This document shows positions 13,349-50,165 of a DNA stretch of 64,000 bases, one piece after another. Where the stretch lies: assembly GCF_053078305.1 (NCBI RefSeq), contig NZ_CP166879.1. One strand, given 5' to 3'. Below the pieces are notes generated by a model, which had not been told where the DNA came from, searched no databases, and was given only the letters and a program-made list of their open reading frames with translations. How positions within the stretch are numbered: the first letter of the stretch is position 1; the number at the start of each line of letters is the position of its first letter. Made by a program: the position numbers and the translations under genes.

Positions 13349-15535
13349 ATGTCCGATCGTATCGATAGAGACGTGATTAACGCGCTAATTGCAGGCCATT
13401 TTGCGGATCCTTTTTCCGTACTGGGAATGCATAAAACCACCGCGGGACTGGAAGTCCGTGCCCTTTTACCCGACGCTACCGATGTCTGGGTGATTGAACC
13501 GAAAACCGGGCGCAAACTCGCAAAACTGGAGTGTCTCGACTCACGGGGATTCTTTAGCGGCATCATTCCGCGACGTAAGAATTTTTTCCGCTATCAGTTG
13601 GCTGTTGTCTGGCATGGTCAGCAAAACCTGATTGATGATCCTTACCGTTTTGGTCCGCTAATCCAGGAAATGGATGCCTGGCTATTATCTGAAGGTACTC
13701 ACCTGCGTCCGTATGAAACCTTAGGCGCGCATGCAGATACTATGGATGGCGTCACAGGTACGCGTTTTTCTGTCTGGGCTCCAAACGCCCGTCGGGTCTC
13801 GGTGGTTGGGCAATTCAACTACTGGGACGGTCGCCGTCACCCGATGCGCCTGCGTAAAGAGAGCGGCATCTGGGAACTGTTTATCCCTGGGGCGCATAAC
13901 GGTCAGCTCTATAAATACGAGATGATTGATGCCAATGGCAACTTGCGTCTGAAGTCCGACCCTTATGCCTTCGAAGCGCAAATGCGCCCGGAAACCGCGT
14001 CTCTTATTTGCGGGCTGCCGGAAAAGGTTGTACAGACTGAAGAGCGCAAAAAAGCGAATCAGTTTGATGCGCCAATCTCTATTTATGAAGTTCACCTGGG
14101 CTCCTGGCGTCGCCACACCGACAACAATTTCTGGTTGAGCTACCGCGAGCTGGCCGATCAACTGGTGCCTTATGCTAAATGGATGGGCTTTACCCACCTC
14201 GAACTACTGCCCATTAACGAGCATCCCTTCGATGGCAGTTGGGGTTATCAGCCAACCGGCCTGTATGCACCAACCCGCCGTTTTGGTACTCGCGACGACT
14301 TCCGTTATTTCATTGATGCTGCACACGCAGCTGGTCTGAACGTGATTCTCGACTGGGTGCCAGGCCACTTCCCGACTGATGACTTTGCGCTTGCCGAATT
14401 TGATGGTACGAACTTGTATGAACACAGCGATCCGCGCGAAGGCTATCATCAGGACTGGAACACGCTGATTTACAACTATGGTCGCCGTGAAGTCAGTAAC
14501 TTCCTCGTCGGTAACGCGCTTTACTGGATTGAACGTTTTGGTATTGATGCGCTGCGCGTCGATGCGGTGGCGTCGATGATTTATCGTGACTACAGCCGTA
14601 AAGAGGGGGAGTGGATCCCGAACGAATTTGGCGGGCGCGAGAATCTTGAAGCGATTGAATTCTTGCGTAATACCAACCGTATTCTTGGTGAGCAGGTTTC
14701 CGGTGCGGTGACAATGGCTGAGGAGTCTACCGATTTCCCTGGCGTTTCTCGTCCGCAGGATATGGGCGGTCTGGGCTTCTGGTACAAGTGGAACCTCGGC
14801 TGGATGCATGACACCCTGGACTACATGAAGCTCGACCCGATTTATCGTCAGTATCATCACGATAAACTGACCTTCGGGATGCTCTACAACTACACTGAAA
14901 ACTTCGTCCTGCCGTTGTCGCATGATGAAGTGGTCCACGGTAAAAAATCGATTCTCGACCGCATGCCGGGCGACGCATGGCAGAAATTCGCTAACCTGCG
15001 CGCTTACTATGGCTGGATGTGGGCATTTCCGGGCAAGAAACTGCTGTTCATGGGGAACGAATTTGCCCAGGGCCGCGAGTGGAACCATGACGCCAGCCTC
15101 GACTGGCATCTGTTGGAAGGCGGCGATAACTGGCACCACGGTGTCCAGCGTCTGGTGCGCGATCTGAACCTCACCTACCGCCACCATAAAGCGATGCATG
15201 AACTGGATTTTGACCCGTACGGCTTTGAATGGCTGGTGGTGGATGACAAAGAACGCTCGGTGCTGATCTTTGTGCGTCGCGATAAAGAGGGTAACGAAAT
15301 CATCGTTGCCAGTAACTTTACGCCGGTGCCGCGTCATGATTATCGCTTCGGCATTAATCAGCCAGGCAAATGGCGTGAGATCCTCAATACCGATTCCATG
15401 CACTATCACGGCAGTAATGCAGGCAATGGCGGCACGGTACACAGCGATGAGATTGCCAGCCATGGTCGTCAGCATTCACTAAGCCTGACGCTACCACCGC
15501 TGGCCACTATCTGGCTGGTTCGGGAGGCAGAATGA
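13349..15535 (+). CDS. glgB: 1,4-alpha-glucan branching enzyme
   Basis: 728-aa GH13 enzyme; first gene of the glgBX-glgCAP cluster. Confidence 0.95.
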
Positions 15536-17505
15536 CACAACTCGCCATTGGCAAACCCGCTCCCCTCGGCGCGCATTACGACGGTCAGGGCGTCAACTTC
15601 ACACTTTTCTCCGCTCATGCCGAGCGGGTAGAGCTGTGTGTCTTTGACGCCAATGGCCAGGAACATCGCTATGACTTGCCAGGGCACAGTGGCGACATTT
15701 GGCACGGTTATCTGCCGGATGCGCGCCCGGGTTTGCGTTATGGTTATCGCGTTCATGGCCCCTGGCAACCCGCCGAGGGGCATCGCTTTAACCCGGCGAA
15801 GTTGTTGATTGATCCTTGCGCGCGGCAAATTGACGGGGAGTTTAAAGATAACCCGCTGCTGCACGCCGGTCATAATGAACCTGACTATCGCGACAACGCC
15901 GCCATTGCGCCGAAATGCGTAGTGGTGGTTGATCACTATGACTGGGAAGATGATGCCCCGCCGTGCACGCCGTGGGGCAGCACCATCATTTATGAAGCCC
16001 ATGTCAAAGGATTAACATACCTGCACCCGGAGATCCCGGTCGAGATCCGTGGCACTTATAAAGCCCTCGGGCATCCGGTGATGATCAACTATTTGAAACA
16101 GTTGGGCATTACCGCGCTGGAACTGCTGCCGGTGGCGCAGTTTGCCAGTGAACCACGTCTGCAACGCATGGGGCTAAGTAACTACTGGGGGTACAACCCG
16201 GTGGCGATGTTTGCGCTGCATCCGGCGTATGCCTGCTCGCCAGAAACGGCGCTGCATGAGTTTCGCGATGCAATCAAAGCACTGCATAAAGCGGGTATCG
16301 AAGTCATTCTTGATATCGTGCTCAACCATAGTGCGGAACTGGACCTCGACGGCCCGTTATTCTCGCTGCGTGGGATCGACAACCGTAGCTATTATTGGAT
16401 AAGAGAAGACGGCGATTATCACAACTGGACCGGTTGTGGCAACACGCTCAATTTGAGTCACCCGGCGGTGGTGGATTATGCCAGCGCCTGCCTGCGTTAT
16501 TGGGTAGAAACCTGCCACGTCGATGGTTTCCGCTTTGATCTGGCGGCAGTCATGGGTCGTACGCCAGAGTTCCGTCAGGATGCGCCGTTGTTTACCGCTA
16601 TCCAGAACTGCCCGGTGCTCTCGCAGGTGAAGTTAATTGCTGAACCGTGGGATATCGCTCCTGGTGGTTATCAGGTGGGAAATTTCCCGCCGCTGTTTGC
16701 CGAGTGGAACGATCATTTCCGCGATGCTGCCCGTCGTTTCTGGCTACATTATGATTTGCCTCTGGGGGCGTTTGCCGGGCGTTTTGCTGCCTCCAGCGAT
16801 GTTTTTAAACGTAATGGTCGTCTGCCGAGTGCCGCGATTAATCTCGTCACCGCACATGACGGTTTTACGCTTCGCGACTGCGTTTGCTTCAACCATAAAC
16901 ACAATGAAGCAAACGGAGAAGAAAATCGCGACGGGACCAACAACAATTACAGTAACAATCATGGTAAAGAAGGGTTAGGCGGTACTCTTGATCTGGTTGA
17001 ACGGCGGCGCGACAGCATTCATGCCCTGTTAACAACGTTGTTGCTCTCCCAGGGCACGCCGATGTTACTGGCCGGTGACGAACATGGTCACAGCCAGCAT
17101 GGCAATAACAATGCCTACTGTCAGGATAACCAATTAACCTGGTTGGACTGGTCGCAGGCAAGCAGTGGTTTAACCGCATTTACCGCCGCGTTAATCCATC
17201 TGCGCAAGCGTATTCCCGCTTTGGTGGAGAATCGCTGGTGGGAAGAAGGCGACGGCAATGTCCGTTGGCTAAATCGATATGCTCAACCTTTAAGCACGGA
17301 TGAGTGGCAAAACGGGCCGAAACAGCTGCAAATTCTGCTCTCGGATCGCTTTTTGATCGCAATTAACGCCACGCTTGAGGTAACAGAGATTGTTTTACCT
17401 GCAGGGGAGTGGCACGCCATTCCCCCATTCGCTGGAGAGGATAACCCAGTGATTACGGCTGTCTGGCAGGGACCTGCACACGGATTGTGTGTGTTCCAGA
17501 GATGA
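15532..17505 (+). CDS. glgX: Glycogen debranching enzyme
   Basis: 657-aa GH13 ORF; overlaps the glgB stop by 4 nt. Confidence 0.95.
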
Positions 17506-17520
17506 TAAAAAAGGAGTTAG
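17476..17520 (+). promoter_or_regulatory. glgC leader with CsrA binding sites (GGA in the cacacGGAuugugug hairpin loop and at the Shine-Dalgarno AAGGAG)
   Basis: Hairpin and GGA motifs seen in the sequence; CsrA repression of glgCAP is established knowledge. Confidence 0.7.
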
Positions 17521-17522
17521 TC

Positions 17523-18818
17523 ATGGTTAGTTTAGAGAAGAACGATCACTTAATGTTGGCGCGCCAGCTGCCATTGAAATCTGTTGCCCTGATACTGGCG
17601 GGAGGACGTGGTACCCGCCTGAAGGATTTAACCAATAAGCGAGCAAAACCGGCCGTACACTTCGGCGGTAAGTTCCGCATTATCGACTTTGCGCTGTCTA
17701 ACTGCATCAACTCCGGGATCCGTCGTATGGGCGTGATCACCCAGTACCAGTCCCACACTCTGGTGCAGCACATTCAGCGCGGCTGGTCATTCTTCAATGA
17801 AGAAATGAACGAGTTTGTCGATCTGCTGCCAGCACAGCAGAGAATGAAAGGGGAAAACTGGTATCGCGGCACCGCAGATGCGGTCACCCAAAACCTCGAC
17901 ATTATCCGCCGTTATAAAGCGGAATACGTGGTGATCCTGGCGGGCGACCATATCTACAAGCAAGACTACTCGCGTATGCTTATCGACCACGTCGAAAAAG
18001 GCGCACGTTGCACCGTTGCTTGTATGCCAGTACCGATTGAAGAAGCCTCCGCATTTGGCGTTATGGCGGTTGATGAGAACGATAAAATTATCGAATTCGT
18101 TGAAAAACCTGCTAACCCGCCGTCAATGCCGAACGATCCGAGCAAATCTCTGGCGAGTATGGGTATCTACGTCTTTGACGCCGACTATCTGTATGAACTG
18201 CTGGAAGAAGACGATCGCGATGAGAACTCCAGCCACGACTTTGGCAAAGATTTGATTCCCAAGATCACCGAAGCCGGTCTGGCCTATGCGCACCCGTTCC
18301 CGCTCTCTTGCGTACAATCCGACCCGGATGCCGAGCCGTACTGGCGCGATGTGGGTACGCTGGAAGCTTACTGGAAAGCGAACCTCGATCTGGCCTCTGT
18401 GGTGCCGGAGCTGGATATGTACGATCGCAATTGGCCAATTCGCACCTACAATGAATCATTACCGCCAGCGAAATTCGTGCAGGATCGCTCCGGTAGCCAC
18501 GGGATGACCCTTAACTCACTGGTTTCCGGCGGTTGTGTGATCTCCGGTTCGGTGGTGGTGCAGTCCGTTCTGTTCTCGCGCGTTCGCGTGAATTCATTCT
18601 GCAACATTGATTCCGCCGTATTGTTACCGGAAGTATGGGTAGGTCGCTCGTGCCGTCTGCGCCGCTGCGTCATCGATCGTGCTTGTGTTATTCCGGAAGG
18701 CATGGTGATTGGTGAAAACGCAGAGGAAGATGCACGTCGTTTCTATCGTTCAGAAGAAGGCATCGTGCTGGTAACGCGCGAAATGCTACGGAAGTTAGGG
18801 CATAAACAGGAGCGATAA
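17523..18818 (+). CDS. glgC: Glucose-1-phosphate adenylyltransferase
   Basis: Start placed at [33 protein letters not shown] (431 aa), not the upstream in-frame ATG. Confidence 0.95.
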
Positions 18819-20251
18819 TGCAGGTTTTACATGTATGTTCAGAGATGTTCCCGCTGCTTAAAACCGGCGGTCTGGCTGATGTTATTGGGGCATTACCCGC
18901 AGCACAAATCGCAGACGGCGTTGACGCTCGCGTACTGTTGCCTGCATTTCCCGATATTCGCCGTGGCGTGACCGATGCGCAGGTAGTATCCCGTCGTGAT
19001 ACCTTCGCCGGGCATATCACGCTGTTGTTCGGTCATTACAACGGGGTTGGCATATACCTGATTGACGCGCCGCATCTCTATGATCGTCCGGGAAGCCCGT
19101 ATCACGATACCAACTTATTTGCCTATACCGACAACGTATTGCGTTTTGCGCTACTGGGGTGGGTTGGGGCAGAAATGGCCAGCGGGCTTGACCCATTCTG
19201 GCGTCCTGATGTGGTGCATGCGCACGACTGGCATGCAGGCCTTGCGCCTGCGTATCTGGCGGCGCGCGGGCGTCCGGCGAAGTCGGTGTTTACTGTGCAC
19301 AACCTGGCCTATCAAGGCATGTTTTATGCACATCACATGAATGACATCCAATTGCCATGGTCATTCTTTAATATTCATGGGCTGGAATTCAACGGACAAA
19401 TCTCTTTCCTGAAGGCCGGTCTGTACTATGCCGATCACATTACGGCGGTCAGTCCAACCTACGCTCGCGAGATCACCGAACCGCAGTTTGCCTACGGTAT
19501 GGAAGGTCTGTTGCAACAGCGTCACCGTGAAGGGCGTCTTTCCGGCGTACTGAACGGCGTGGACGAGAAAATCTGGAGTCCAGAGACGGACTTACTGTTG
19601 GCCTCGCGTTACACCCGCGATACGTTGGAAGATAAAGCGGAAAATAAGCGCCAGTTACAAATCGCAATGGGGCTTAAGGTTGACGATAAAGTGCCGCTTT
19701 TTGCAGTGGTGAGCCGTCTGACCAGCCAGAAAGGTCTCGACCTGGTGCTGGAAGCCTTACCGGGCCTTCTGGAGCAGGGCGGGCAGCTGGCGCTACTCGG
19801 CGCGGGCGATCCGGTGCTGCAGGAAGGTTTCCTTGCGGCGGCAGCGGAATACCCCGGCCAGGTGGGCGTTCAGATTGGCTATCACGAAGCATTTTCGCAT
19901 CGCATTATGGGCGGCGCGGACGTCATTCTGGTGCCCAGCCGTTTTGAACCGTGCGGCTTAACGCAACTTTATGGATTGAAGTACGGTACGCTGCCGTTAG
20001 TGCGGCGCACCGGTGGGCTTGCTGATACGGTTTCTGACTGTTCTCTTGAGAACCTTGCAGATGGCGTCGCCAGTGGGTTTGTCTTTGAAGATAGTAATGC
20101 CTGGTCGCTATTACGGGCTATTCGACGTGCTTTTGTACTGTGGTCCCGTCCTTCACTGTGGCGGTTTGTGCAACGTCAGGCTATGGCAATGGATTTTAGC
20201 TGGCAGGTCGCGGCGAAGTCGTACCGTGAGCTTTACTATCGCTTGAAATAG
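18818..20251 (+). CDS. glgA: Glycogen synthase
   Basis: 477 aa; N-terminal [14 protein letters not shown] motif; start overlaps the glgC stop. Confidence 0.95.
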
Positions 20252-22833: not shown

Positions 22834-24351
22834 ATGGACAGAATGATGCCAAATAGAAAATGGATTTTGACCTCGCTGATAATGACTTTTTTCGGCATCC
22901 CCATACTGGCGCAATTTTTGGCAGCGGTTGTTGCCATGCTGGGTGTCGGGCTTACCGGTATTATTGAAGTTTGTAATATCCTTATCACGCCAACAATTTA
23001 TCTTCTACTCAACGTCTTTATGCTGACGCTGGGGGCGATAATAATATTTTTCTCTGGTCGCGTGTGGGCCGGTGATAGCGCGCCAGAAAACAGAGAAATA
23101 GCCGTCTGGCGGCAATGCTTTTTTCTCTTACCCGCGCTATTAACCCTGGTTGGCTGGATAATCACGCTACATCTGGCAGATTATCAATTTCGCCAGATGG
23201 GAGCTGGTTGGTTGGCAAACCTTATGCTTCCCTGGTTGGGCGTTTTTTTAGTCTCATTAGTGGGTGGTGAGTACTGGTGGATGGTCATTATTCCCGTTGG
23301 GGTGCATATCAGTTTTTCGCTGGGATACGCCTGGCCGACCAGATATCCTTTATCCGGCACGTCCGGACTACGTTGCCGTAACTTACTCCTGTTTCTACTT
23401 CTCTTACTTGGTATTGTCGCCGGGTATCAGGCCCATTTATATAAGCAGCAAAATCCTGGTGTCGGTGTACGCGAAAATATTGATATCTGGGCCTGGCGAC
23501 CCGATAAACTCAATAATCGACTGACGCCGCTGCGTGGCAAACCGCAAATTCAGTTTAGGCAAAACTGGCCGCGAATCGATGGCGCCACGGCTGCGTACCC
23601 AATTTATGCTTCTGCATTTTATGCATTAAGTGTAATACCAGAGGATTTTCACGTTTGGGATTATCTGGAAAACTCTCGTACGCCAGAAGCATATAACAAA
23701 ATCGTTAAGGGCGATGCTGATATTATTTTCGTGGCGCAACCTTCCGGTGGGCAAAAAAAACGTGCAAAGGAATCTGGTGTCACTTTGCTGTACACCCCCT
23801 TTGCCCGTGAAGCATTCGTTTTCATCGTCAATGCGGATAATCCGGTTAATTCCCTGACTGAACAACAGGTGCGTGACATTTTCAGTGGTGCAATTACCAA
23901 CTGGCGTACTTTTGGCGGTAACGATCAGGAGATCCAGACCTGGCAGCGCCCGGAAGACTCTGGCAGCCAGACAGTGATGCAATCACAGGTCATGAAAAAT
24001 GTCCGCATGATCTCGCCGCAGGAAACGGAAGTGGCAAGCGTGATGGAGGGAATGATTAAAGTCGTTGCCGAATACCGTAATACAAACAACGCAATAGGCT
24101 ATACCTTCCGCTATTACGCGACGCAAATGAATGCTGATAAAAATATAAAATTGCTAGCGATTAACGGTATTACACCGACGGCGGAAAACATTCGCAACGG
24201 CAAATATGCGTACATCGTCGATGCATTTATGGTGACGAGAGAAAATAAAACGTCAGAAACACAAAAACTGGTCGAATGGTTTTTAACGCCGCAGGGGCAG
24301 AGTCTGGTAGAAGATGTGGGATATGTGCCGCTGTATAAAATCTTACCTTAA
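22834..24351 (+). CDS. Membrane-anchored protein: N-terminal polytopic domain (~6 predicted TM helices) plus C-terminal periplasmic solute-binding-protein-like domain (PBP superfamily, possibly phosphate/oxyanion type)
   Basis: 505-aa ORF. First ~200 aa hydrophobic; C-terminal part has SBP-like segments (DGATAAYPIYASAFY, FVAQPSGGQ, LLAINGITPTAENIRNGKYAY). K-12 carries only a pseudogene (yzgL) at this position as far as I recall. SBP subfamily is a guess. Confidence 0.6.
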   Translation: MDRMMPNRKWILTSLIMTFFGIPILAQFLAAVVAMLGVGLTGIIEVCNILITPTIYLLLNVFMLTLGAIIIFFSGRVWAGDSAPENREIAVWRQCFFLLPALLTLVGWIITLHLADYQFRQMGAGWLANLMLPWLGVFLVSLVGGEYWWMVIIPVGVHISFSLGYAWPTRYPLSGTSGLRCRNLLLFLLLLLGIVAGYQAHLYKQQNPGVGVRENIDIWAWRPDKLNNRLTPLRGKPQIQFRQNWPRIDGATAAYPIYASAFYALSVIPEDFHVWDYLENSRTPEAYNKIVKGDADIIFVAQPSGGQKKRAKESGVTLLYTPFAREAFVFIVNADNPVNSLTEQQVRDIFSGAITNWRTFGGNDQEIQTWQRPEDSGSQTVMQSQVMKNVRMISPQETEVASVMEGMIKVVAEYRNTNNAIGYTFRYYATQMNADKNIKLLAINGITPTAENIRNGKYAYIVDAFMVTRENKTSETQKLVEWFLTPQGQSLVEDVGYVPLYKILP

Positions 24352-24453
24352 GCAGGATAATCATATGGATACCGGTATTATTCGCCTGAACGCGGCCAAT
24401 GCTCGTTTTGTTTATCAACCGTTTACACGCAATCAGCGGAAGAGGGAGTAATT

Positions 24454-25230
24454 ATGCAATGCAGCCCCGCCATGCAGGCATTAATTGAGCAGATTTATCA
24501 TATTTTTCGTCGTTATCCGGTGCCGTCGAGATTTCATGTTTGTTGTCCTTACTGCTTTAGCGAAGAACAACAACAAGCCTTAAGAGGGGTTTCACTGCGT
24601 GCCATACCTTTCCCTTTATTACATGCCTGGGGAACAAGTATTGGTCCTACCCCGCAAAATGATGATGAGATTCGCTATTTATTACCCAGATTGTTTGAAT
24701 TTATTTCCCAAAGGCAATTTCCAGGCATTTATGAAGGCTGCTGTTTACAGAGAATAGCAGAGGCAGATAACCAGAACTGGCGAACGGACGAACTACAAAT
24801 AATTAGCGATTTCGCCTATTTATATATGCAGGATTGGGTGTCGGCTAAGGAGGTCGTAGAACTGGAAATAATATTAGAAATGTTTTATCGCGGTGGTATA
24901 AAGATTGAACCCTTACTTGACGCCATTATGTCCATTTCCGGTTACTGGCCGACGGCGTCTATGGCATGTTTGCTCTGGCGTAACAGTAAAGAATACGTCG
25001 AAAATAGCGATTTTGAGCAGAGTGATGATAATAAAACTATTACCACTCAAATTAATACCTGGGCTAGAAATAATCATCCTTTTCTGAAAGAAAGAGCGCG
25101 ACAAGCGATTGAGAACCCACTAAAACAGCCTGAACCAATGACAGAATATCAAGTCTGGGAAGACGACTGGATGATTGATGAGTGTTTATGCGCGATGTAT
25201 GACGCATCACCCGAACAATCAGGACAATAA
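24454..25230 (+). CDS. Hypothetical soluble protein, Cys-containing N-terminus (CCPYC); no family recognised
   Basis: 258-aa ORF, AT-richer than flanking core genes; its stop is 2 nt before the next ORF's start. Confidence 0.5.
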   Translation: MQCSPAMQALIEQIYHIFRRYPVPSRFHVCCPYCFSEEQQQALRGVSLRAIPFPLLHAWGTSIGPTPQNDDEIRYLLPRLFEFISQRQFPGIYEGCCLQRIAEADNQNWRTDELQIISDFAYLYMQDWVSAKEVVELEIILEMFYRGGIKIEPLLDAIMSISGYWPTASMACLLWRNSKEYVENSDFEQSDDNKTITTQINTWARNNHPFLKERARQAIENPLKQPEPMTEYQVWEDDWMIDECLCAMYDASPEQSGQ

Positions 25231-25232
25231 AG

Positions 25233-25823
25233 ATGAATAAAATCAGACTTTATATTTATCCGCTATATCTCGGCTTTGTTATTGTGCCGTTGTTGGTGTG
25301 GCCGACGGTGGTTGTTGTTGGTATCACACTGAGTTTTCTAATGGAGATGCTGTTCTCAAATTCGTTCATGCACAGGCGTATTTCCCTTCTGGAATTACAA
25401 CTTGGGTTATTGGCTGAATATACGCTTTTGTTCTGCGCCATATGTTGCGTTGGTTGGCAATTTGCTCGCATAACTCAATCTGAATTGAAAAGCAAACTGC
25501 ATTATTGGCTGGTATTTGTACCAGTTTATTTCTGGTTGCTCCTGTGGAATATCATTTTCTATGTCGCGCCAGCGAAAATTGCATTGCTGGAAAATATGCG
25601 CAGTTTCTTTCTGACCGTTGTCTGGCTCCCACTGAATTTTTCGCCATTTTGGTCTCAACCGTGGATTGACTTTGTCGGTCCAATAAGCGCACAGCTTGGT
25701 TTTGCGTTGGGATATTATTGCCAGTGGCGTAGCAAAAATAGAAGCCAGAGGAAGAAGTGGGGCGAGTGGGTAATGTGCTTAAGTTTTGTTACGTTGGGTA
25801 TGATGGCGTGGGCTTTGCGGTAA
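25233..25823 (+). CDS. Hypothetical integral membrane protein (4-5 predicted TM helices)
   Basis: 196-aa hydrophobic ORF tightly coupled to the preceding ORF; AT-rich. Confidence 0.5.
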   Translation: MNKIRLYIYPLYLGFVIVPLLVWPTVVVVGITLSFLMEMLFSNSFMHRRISLLELQLGLLAEYTLLFCAICCVGWQFARITQSELKSKLHYWLVFVPVYFWLLLWNIIFYVAPAKIALLENMRSFFLTVVWLPLNFSPFWSQPWIDFVGPISAQLGFALGYYCQWRSKNRSQRKKWGEWVMCLSFVTLGMMAWALR

Positions 25824-25876: not shown

Positions 25877-25975
25877 GCCTGATGCGGCGTGAACGCCTTA
25901 TCAGGCCTACAAAATCATGCAAATTCAACATATTGCATAAACCACGTAGGCCTGATAAGCGTAGCGCATCAGGCA
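25877..25975. repeat. BIME: two inverted REP sequences (gcctgatgcggcgtgaacgccttatcaggcctac ... gtaggcctgataagcgtagcgcatcaggca)
   Basis: Canonical enterobacterial REP consensus (GATGCGGCG ... GGCCTAC) read directly; intergenic, downstream of glpD. Confidence 0.85.
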
Positions 25976-49937: not shown

Positions 49938-50165
49938 TTAACAGGAAACCGCTTCCACTTCTAATAAGGCCAGATCTTTTTTGCGTAATACCAGGCTCAC
50001 ACGACGGGTTTCGATATGAATGGGGTCGCCGAGTGGAGCGACGCGCACCACATTAAAAGAGGAGCCAGGTAACATGCCAAGAGAAAGCAGTTTTTGGCGA
50101 TATGCCGGGCTGATTTCACGGGAAAAGCCAGTGATTTTCCACGCAGTATCTGGAGTGTATTGCAT
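49938..50165 (-). CDS. feoA: FeoA (SH3-like)
   Basis: 75-aa ORF immediately upstream of feoB on the same strand. Confidence 0.9.

Follow-up and report, generated by a model that had tools for sequence, protein, structure and literature searches.

The window, a stretch of 64,000 nucleotides, is E. coli chromosome, and its open reading frames together with the K-12 annotation gave the gene order asd-glgB-glgX-glgC-glgA-glgP on the + strand (Table 1). Of 5426 complete E. coli genomes, 5425 contain a match of at least 99% identity to a 401-nt query spanning the glgX-glgC junction, and the two sides of the junction are annotated there as glgX and glgC. The source strain is not K-12, with 21 SNPs over glgX-glgC (window 15501–18900). 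Moreover, an insert of ∼2.7 kb that is absent from K-12 lies between glgP and glpD (window 23068–25759), at a place where K-12 carries only the short yzgL; three + strand ORFs are present there (22834–24351, 24454–25230 and 25233–25823), and the first of them encodes 505 aa with a PBP_like_2 domain and a hydrophobic, membrane-like N-terminal sequence. Within the operon, the glgB stop and glgX start overlap by 4 nt (ATGA, 15532–15535) and the glgC stop and glgA start overlap by 1 nt (18818). Among the junctions glgB-glgX, glgX-glgC and glgC-glgA, only glgX-glgC has a spacer and a strong independent Shine–Dalgarno (SD) sequence, and this arrangement fits separate translational control inserted at that junction.

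Table 1. Features of the glgX-glgC junction in window coordinates
Feature	Position	Strand	Description
glgX CDS	15532..17505	+	Glycogen debranching enzyme, 657 aa
Published 134-nt glgCAP leader	17389..17522	+	117 nt of glgX (codons 620-657 + stop) and the 17-nt spacer
Hairpin H1	17404..17426	+	GGGGAGUGG/CCAUUCCCC, 8 consensus pairs
Hairpin H2	17431..17450	+	GCUGG/CCAGU, 10-nt loop AGAGGAUAAC, GGA at 17440-42
Hairpin H3	17476..17492	+	Stem GCACAC/GUGUGU (17476-81/17487-92), loop GGAUU (17482-86)
glgX stop codon	17503..17505	+	TGA
glgX-glgC spacer	17506..17522	+	17 nt, TAAAAAAGGAGTTAGTC
Shine–Dalgarno sequence	17511..17516	+	AAGGAG, GGA at 17513-15, 6 nt 5′ of the glgC ATG (17523)
glgC CDS	17523..18818	+	Glucose-1-phosphate adenylyltransferase, 431 aa, start ATG at 17523

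The interval 17476–17522, GCACACGGATTGTGTGTGTTCCAGAGATGATAAAAAAGGAGTTAGTC, runs from the first base of hairpin H3 to the last base 5′ of the glgC ATG. The original prediction, which was made from the letters alone, had called it a CsrA-targeted glgC leader, and this identification is correct, as the interval is the E. coli glgX-glgC junction and is identical to K-12 from the hairpin through the ATG. The comparison with the published glgC leader that had been proposed as a check gave the same answer, with hairpin, spacer, SD and start all matching K-12 and a lone difference in the leader, at 17403, that is synonymous. A shorter query of 61 nt, covering the hairpin, SD and start, has a perfect (100%) match in 5382 out of 5425 complete genomes of E. 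coli. Hence, the element is almost certainly the leader of the glgC (glgCAP) mRNA of E. coli, which was the founding CsrA target and is repressed by CsrA through two sites. CsrA reportedly represses translation from the E. coli K-12 glgC leader, as described by Baker et al. 2002 and Mercante et al. 2009. Given the identity with a characterised leader and the published work on CsrA, the element is already known; the glgC leader as a CsrA target is established knowledge, and its presence here only confirms annotation. Absence of CsrA binding to this RNA had been named as what would speak against the prediction, and published binding experiments on this leader have already answered that point.

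The extent of the leader can be read from published primers for a glgC gel-shift RNA, which span ‘+46 to +179’ (PMC2896534). These map to 17434 (+46) and 17567 (+179) in the window, and we infer from these primer coordinates that the glgCAP transcription start site (TSS, +1) is at 17389, giving a leader of 134 nt. A scan of 17100–17600 for sigma-70 promoters and terminators found none, and no processing motif was seen there either, so that the internal glgC promoter is without support from sequence. In Rfam, no family covers the glgC leader at the gathering threshold, and across 15000–20000 no family matched even at E ≤ 10, bar a spurious miRNA match on the other strand. Elsewhere in the window two small RNAs reached gathering level in Rfam, RyhB at 2437–2501 (+, 83 bits) and ES036/CssrF at 25911–25953 (+, 39.3 bits, barely over the threshold).

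The original prediction had also let the GGA-containing SD overlap the last codons of glgX, which is wrong for this strain: the SD begins 5 nt past the stop codon, and the K-12 annotation has the same geometry with the SD outside the glgX codons. The position of the glgX stop thus puts the SD in the intergenic spacer. This 17-nt spacer is identical across Escherichia and many Citrobacter, Enterobacter and Lelliottia. An SD inside glgX codons was found only in a few relatives whose stop sits further downstream, for example in Pluralibacter gergoviae, with a gap of 2, and in Kosakonia cowanii, with a gap of −7.

For the hairpin itself, the claim that it is embedded in the 3′ end of glgX was borne out: H3 corresponds to codons 649–654 of 657 (Ala-His-Gly-Leu-Cys-Val), and likewise 117 of the 134 nt of the leader are glgX sequence, making up its last 39 codons with the stop included. 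Its loop opens with GGA, which is the in-frame codon of Gly651, and the motif ACGGA straddles the stem-loop junction. H3 folds at −7.1 kcal/mol (z = −2.6), a stability equalled by 2 of 200 shuffled sequences, and together with a lower stem (17469–73/17493–97) it reaches −13.6 kcal/mol (z = −2.8); this lower stem is E. coli-specific and is not kept in other genera. The stability of the whole 147-nt leader is unremarkable (z = −1.1), and it is the individual hairpins alone that stand out. Hairpins with GGA in the loop occur in the window at a base rate of 0.66 per kb per strand, and H3 is the only one among them that is followed by a properly spaced SD and a real start codon. A second arrangement of GGA-loop hairpin, SD-like GGA and ATG at 50035–50075 was rejected as a chance match, with no + strand ORF beginning there. 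The count of GGA over the whole window is slightly under-represented and is uninformative.

To compare the junction across species, 80 Enterobacterales glgC loci were fetched, a set without any Salmonella, glgX was codon-aligned, and 39 Enterobacteriaceae were analysed. RNAalifold recovered three conserved hairpins, H1, H2 and H3, de novo over codons 620–655. Among 34 distinct Enterobacteriaceae sequences H1 is 98% paired; for the three hairpins taken together pairing is likewise 98%, and 4 pairs are compensatory. In H2 the wobble bases of Ala634 and Pro639 covary, being C-G in 30 sequences, U-A in 3 and mismatched in 1; with a GGA in its loop, H2 may correspond to one of the CsrA sites further upstream in the leader. 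The H3 stem is paired in about 96–98% of alignment cells. However, four of its six pairs are forced by the conserved amino acids A-H-x-x-C-V, so that conservation of the stem by itself is weak evidence, and the CA/GU repeat lets 92% of cells pair even after a register shift of −2. The two free wobble pairs show compensatory changes: Ala3:Cys3 is found as G-C, A-U and G-U, and His3:Val3 as C-G, U-A and U-G. The covariation score of H3 was reached by none of 500 shuffles, a figure that comes from few events in related sequences and from a structure derived from the same alignment on which it was tested.

The pairs that are fixed by amino acids raise the alternative that H3 is a mere by-product of the GlgX C-terminal peptide A-H-G-(L/V)-C-V, with CsrA control at the SD alone. 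CsrA regulation via a single SD site does exist at hfq (PMC7652899), and a similar stem is present where the loop GGA is missing. The loop GGA was in fact absent outside Enterobacteriaceae among the Enterobacterales loci fetched: residue 651 is mostly encoded by GGC or GGT in Erwiniaceae, with Ala or Asp in a few, and it is Ser, Ala, Asp or Thr in Serratia, Yersinia and others, the stem of Erwiniaceae (GGC/GGT) and of Serratia and Yersinia (Ser/Asp) being similar all the same. Within Enterobacteriaceae, on the other hand, Gly651 is the rare codon GGA in 33 of 39, against a GGA background of 12.6% of glgX Gly codons, which is the highest frequency in any of the 49 conserved Gly columns. Neither this codon choice nor the compensatory wobble changes in the stem are expected of a peptide by-product, and the conserved distance from the loop GGA to the SD described below argues in the same direction. 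Published work on the leader contradicts the by-product explanation as well, since point mutations in the ACGGA of the hairpin change repression in vivo (PMC6028588) and, in Salmonella, CLIP-seq reads of CsrA are centred on the GGA hairpin of glgC in vivo (PMC5207318). We give it hardly any credence.

The codon data extend beyond H3. Gly635, whose GGA at 17434–36 lies in the upstream leader, ranks third of the Gly columns (30/38), and in 9-codon windows of synonymous conservation along glgX, codons 644–652 rank third and codons 634–642 fifth. The comparison thus shows that selection acts on the RNA in addition to the encoded protein. Its probable targets are the wobble positions left free by the amino acids and the rare GGA choice for Gly651. 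Because the GGA is confined to Enterobacteriaceae, the tether site looks like a lineage-specific refinement of a stem that is largely supplied by the protein sequence. The cross-genus comparison is a modest addition, namely codon-level selection for an RNA–protein binding site within coding sequence. Two other places in glgX deserve mention. Synonymous sites are nearly invariant at the rare Leu622 TTA and at Gly625 GGG (window 17395–17406), just 3′ of the inferred TSS, and the presumed glgC promoter region at 17340–17388 showed no excess synonymous conservation. The strongest synonymous-site conservation in all of glgX, among 38 Enterobacteriaceae, lies at 16366–16404 (codons 279–291), where AAC CGT AGC TAT TAT TGG hardly varies and 31 of 38 have GGA for Gly281, E. 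coli having GGG; these codons gave no conserved RNA structure on the one strand or the other, and inspection by eye showed no promoter hexamers at proper spacing.

In the window the GGA of H3 and the GGA of the SD are 31 nt apart, start to start. Of the 33 Enterobacteriaceae with a hairpin GGA, 28 have a distance of 29–32 nt, and in 23 it is exactly 31 nt. Bridging by the CsrA dimer works over 10–63 nt with an optimum of >18 nt (PMC7652899), and the spacing of 29–32 nt falls inside this published range. Where the spacer has no insertion, the position of the glgX stop varies between species, from 7 nt inside glgC up to 17 nt 5′ of the ATG, and the RNA spacing stays fixed although the stop moves. 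It appears that a fixed RNA scaffold, consisting of the 31-nt spacing, the GGA Gly codon and the covarying wobbles, is kept while the glgX stop slides across it. In some genera the glgX-glgC spacer is 22–81 nt long rather than the usual 10–17 nt, and the glgX hairpin is then 51–104 nt from the SD. Pseudocitrobacter faecalis has a 54-nt spacer in which a new hairpin with GGA in the loop, CCGC-GGAG-GGCGG, lies at 28 nt from the SD, much as though the tether site had arisen a second time; a new hairpin of this kind in an insertion is a further point against a peptide by-product.

For CsrA binding, bridging and ribosome exclusion at this locus we rely on published work with the identical sequence, which includes CsrA footprinting and documents binding to both the hairpin loop and the SD. 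The glgC leader has four CsrA sites; the hairpin tethers the dimer, the SD is bridged and the ribosome is excluded (PMC7652899). Leader RNA of glgC has served as a gel-shift competitor (PMC2896534), and a Salmonella glgC-gfp fusion is derepressed by CsrB (PMC5207318). In this published mechanism, given here in window coordinates, one face of the CsrA dimer docks on the loop GGA of H3 (17476–17492) as the high-affinity tether, and the second face bridges 31 nt downstream to the GGA of the SD (17513–15), the lower-affinity site. The bridged CsrA keeps the 30S subunit off the glgC start, the mRNA is destabilised secondarily, and the sRNAs CsrB and CsrC relieve repression by titrating CsrA.

The same leader could be viewed differently, with the hairpins chiefly acting as stability or processing determinants, for example a 5′ stem-loop that keeps RNase E off a processed glgCAP RNA, and with the effects of CsrA secondary. 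The leader does contain three conserved hairpins, one of them near the inferred 5′ end, and CsrA reportedly destabilises glgC mRNA (PMC7652899). The literature, however, attributes this destabilisation to blocked translation (PMC7652899), no terminator-like or processing motif is present in 17100–17600, and a purely structural role would leave the GGA-specific conservation unexplained. We therefore regard a primary role in stability or processing as very unlikely, and dual-site repression by CsrA is kept as the main explanation.

A further possibility concerns the conditions under which CsrA can repress glgC from this leader. Of the 134 leader nucleotides, 117 belong to glgX codons, and 5 nt separate the stop from the SD, so that ribosomes translating glgX should unfold the hairpins and displace CsrA. 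On the full-length glgBXCAP mRNA, glgX ribosomes may thus melt all three leader hairpins, drive CsrA off and perhaps start again at glgC, which would couple glgC initiation to glgX, and CsrA would repress effectively only where the 3′ end of glgX goes untranslated, that is, on glgCAP RNA from an internal promoter or from processing, or where glgX translation is low. The geometry is consistent with this idea: with the stop at 17503–05, the SD at 17511–16 and the ATG at 17523, glgX translation would end 5 nt short of the SD and 17 nt short of the AUG. Moreover, the glgB-glgX (4-nt overlap) and glgC-glgA (1-nt overlap) junctions of the same operon are tightly coupled, and the glgX stop slides, in species free of spacer insertions, between −7 and +17 nt relative to the glgC ATG under a fixed RNA spacing. 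Two transcription units have been described in the literature, the full-length glgBXCAP and a glgCAP unit whose promoter lies inside glgX; Montero et al. 2011 reportedly argued for a single glgBXCAP transcript. The idlP-iraD operon gives a precedent for CsrA acting via translational coupling (PMC6028588), and no open-access paper was found that links glgX translation or translational coupling to the control of glgC.

Gating by glgX translation is, however, a purely inferential proposal, and leader-only constructs, in published reporter and in vitro work, already explain the control by CsrA. CsrA clearly gains access in vivo as well, since it strongly affects glycogen levels and gives a CLIP signal on the hairpin. 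The proposal complements the main explanation and does not exclude it. That the CsrA switch on glgC is gated by glgX translation, with CsrA repressing only untranslated RNA of the glgCAP type, is in our estimate possible but less likely than not. If true, nature would offer here a clean case of dual coding whose regulatory consequence can be tested, and the relation of glgX translation to CsrA repression of glgC, which is unaddressed in the open literature searched, is the only part of the present analysis with potential for novelty.

Compared with known systems, the nearest is the K-12 glgC leader (summarised in PMC7652899), which is the same locus with identical hairpin, spacer, SD and start and the same 31-nt GGA geometry; functional differences from the window are none. 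The Salmonella glgC leader (PMC5207318) has the orthologous GGA hairpin, crosslinked to CsrA in vivo, in a different species. The leaders of cstA, pgaA and ColE7 cel (T1 hairpin and SD) likewise combine a loop GGA with a GGA that overlaps the SD, and act by ribosome exclusion. The cstA, pgaA and cel sites lie in untranslated leaders or intergenic regions, whereas the tether hairpin of glgC is also coding sequence of the upstream gene in the operon. The idlP-iraD system is likewise an operon, and CsrA control of its downstream gene depends on translation of the ORF upstream (PMC6028588); CsrA binds there at the SD of the upstream ORF, whereas at glgC it binds inside the 3′ end of the upstream ORF and at the downstream SD.
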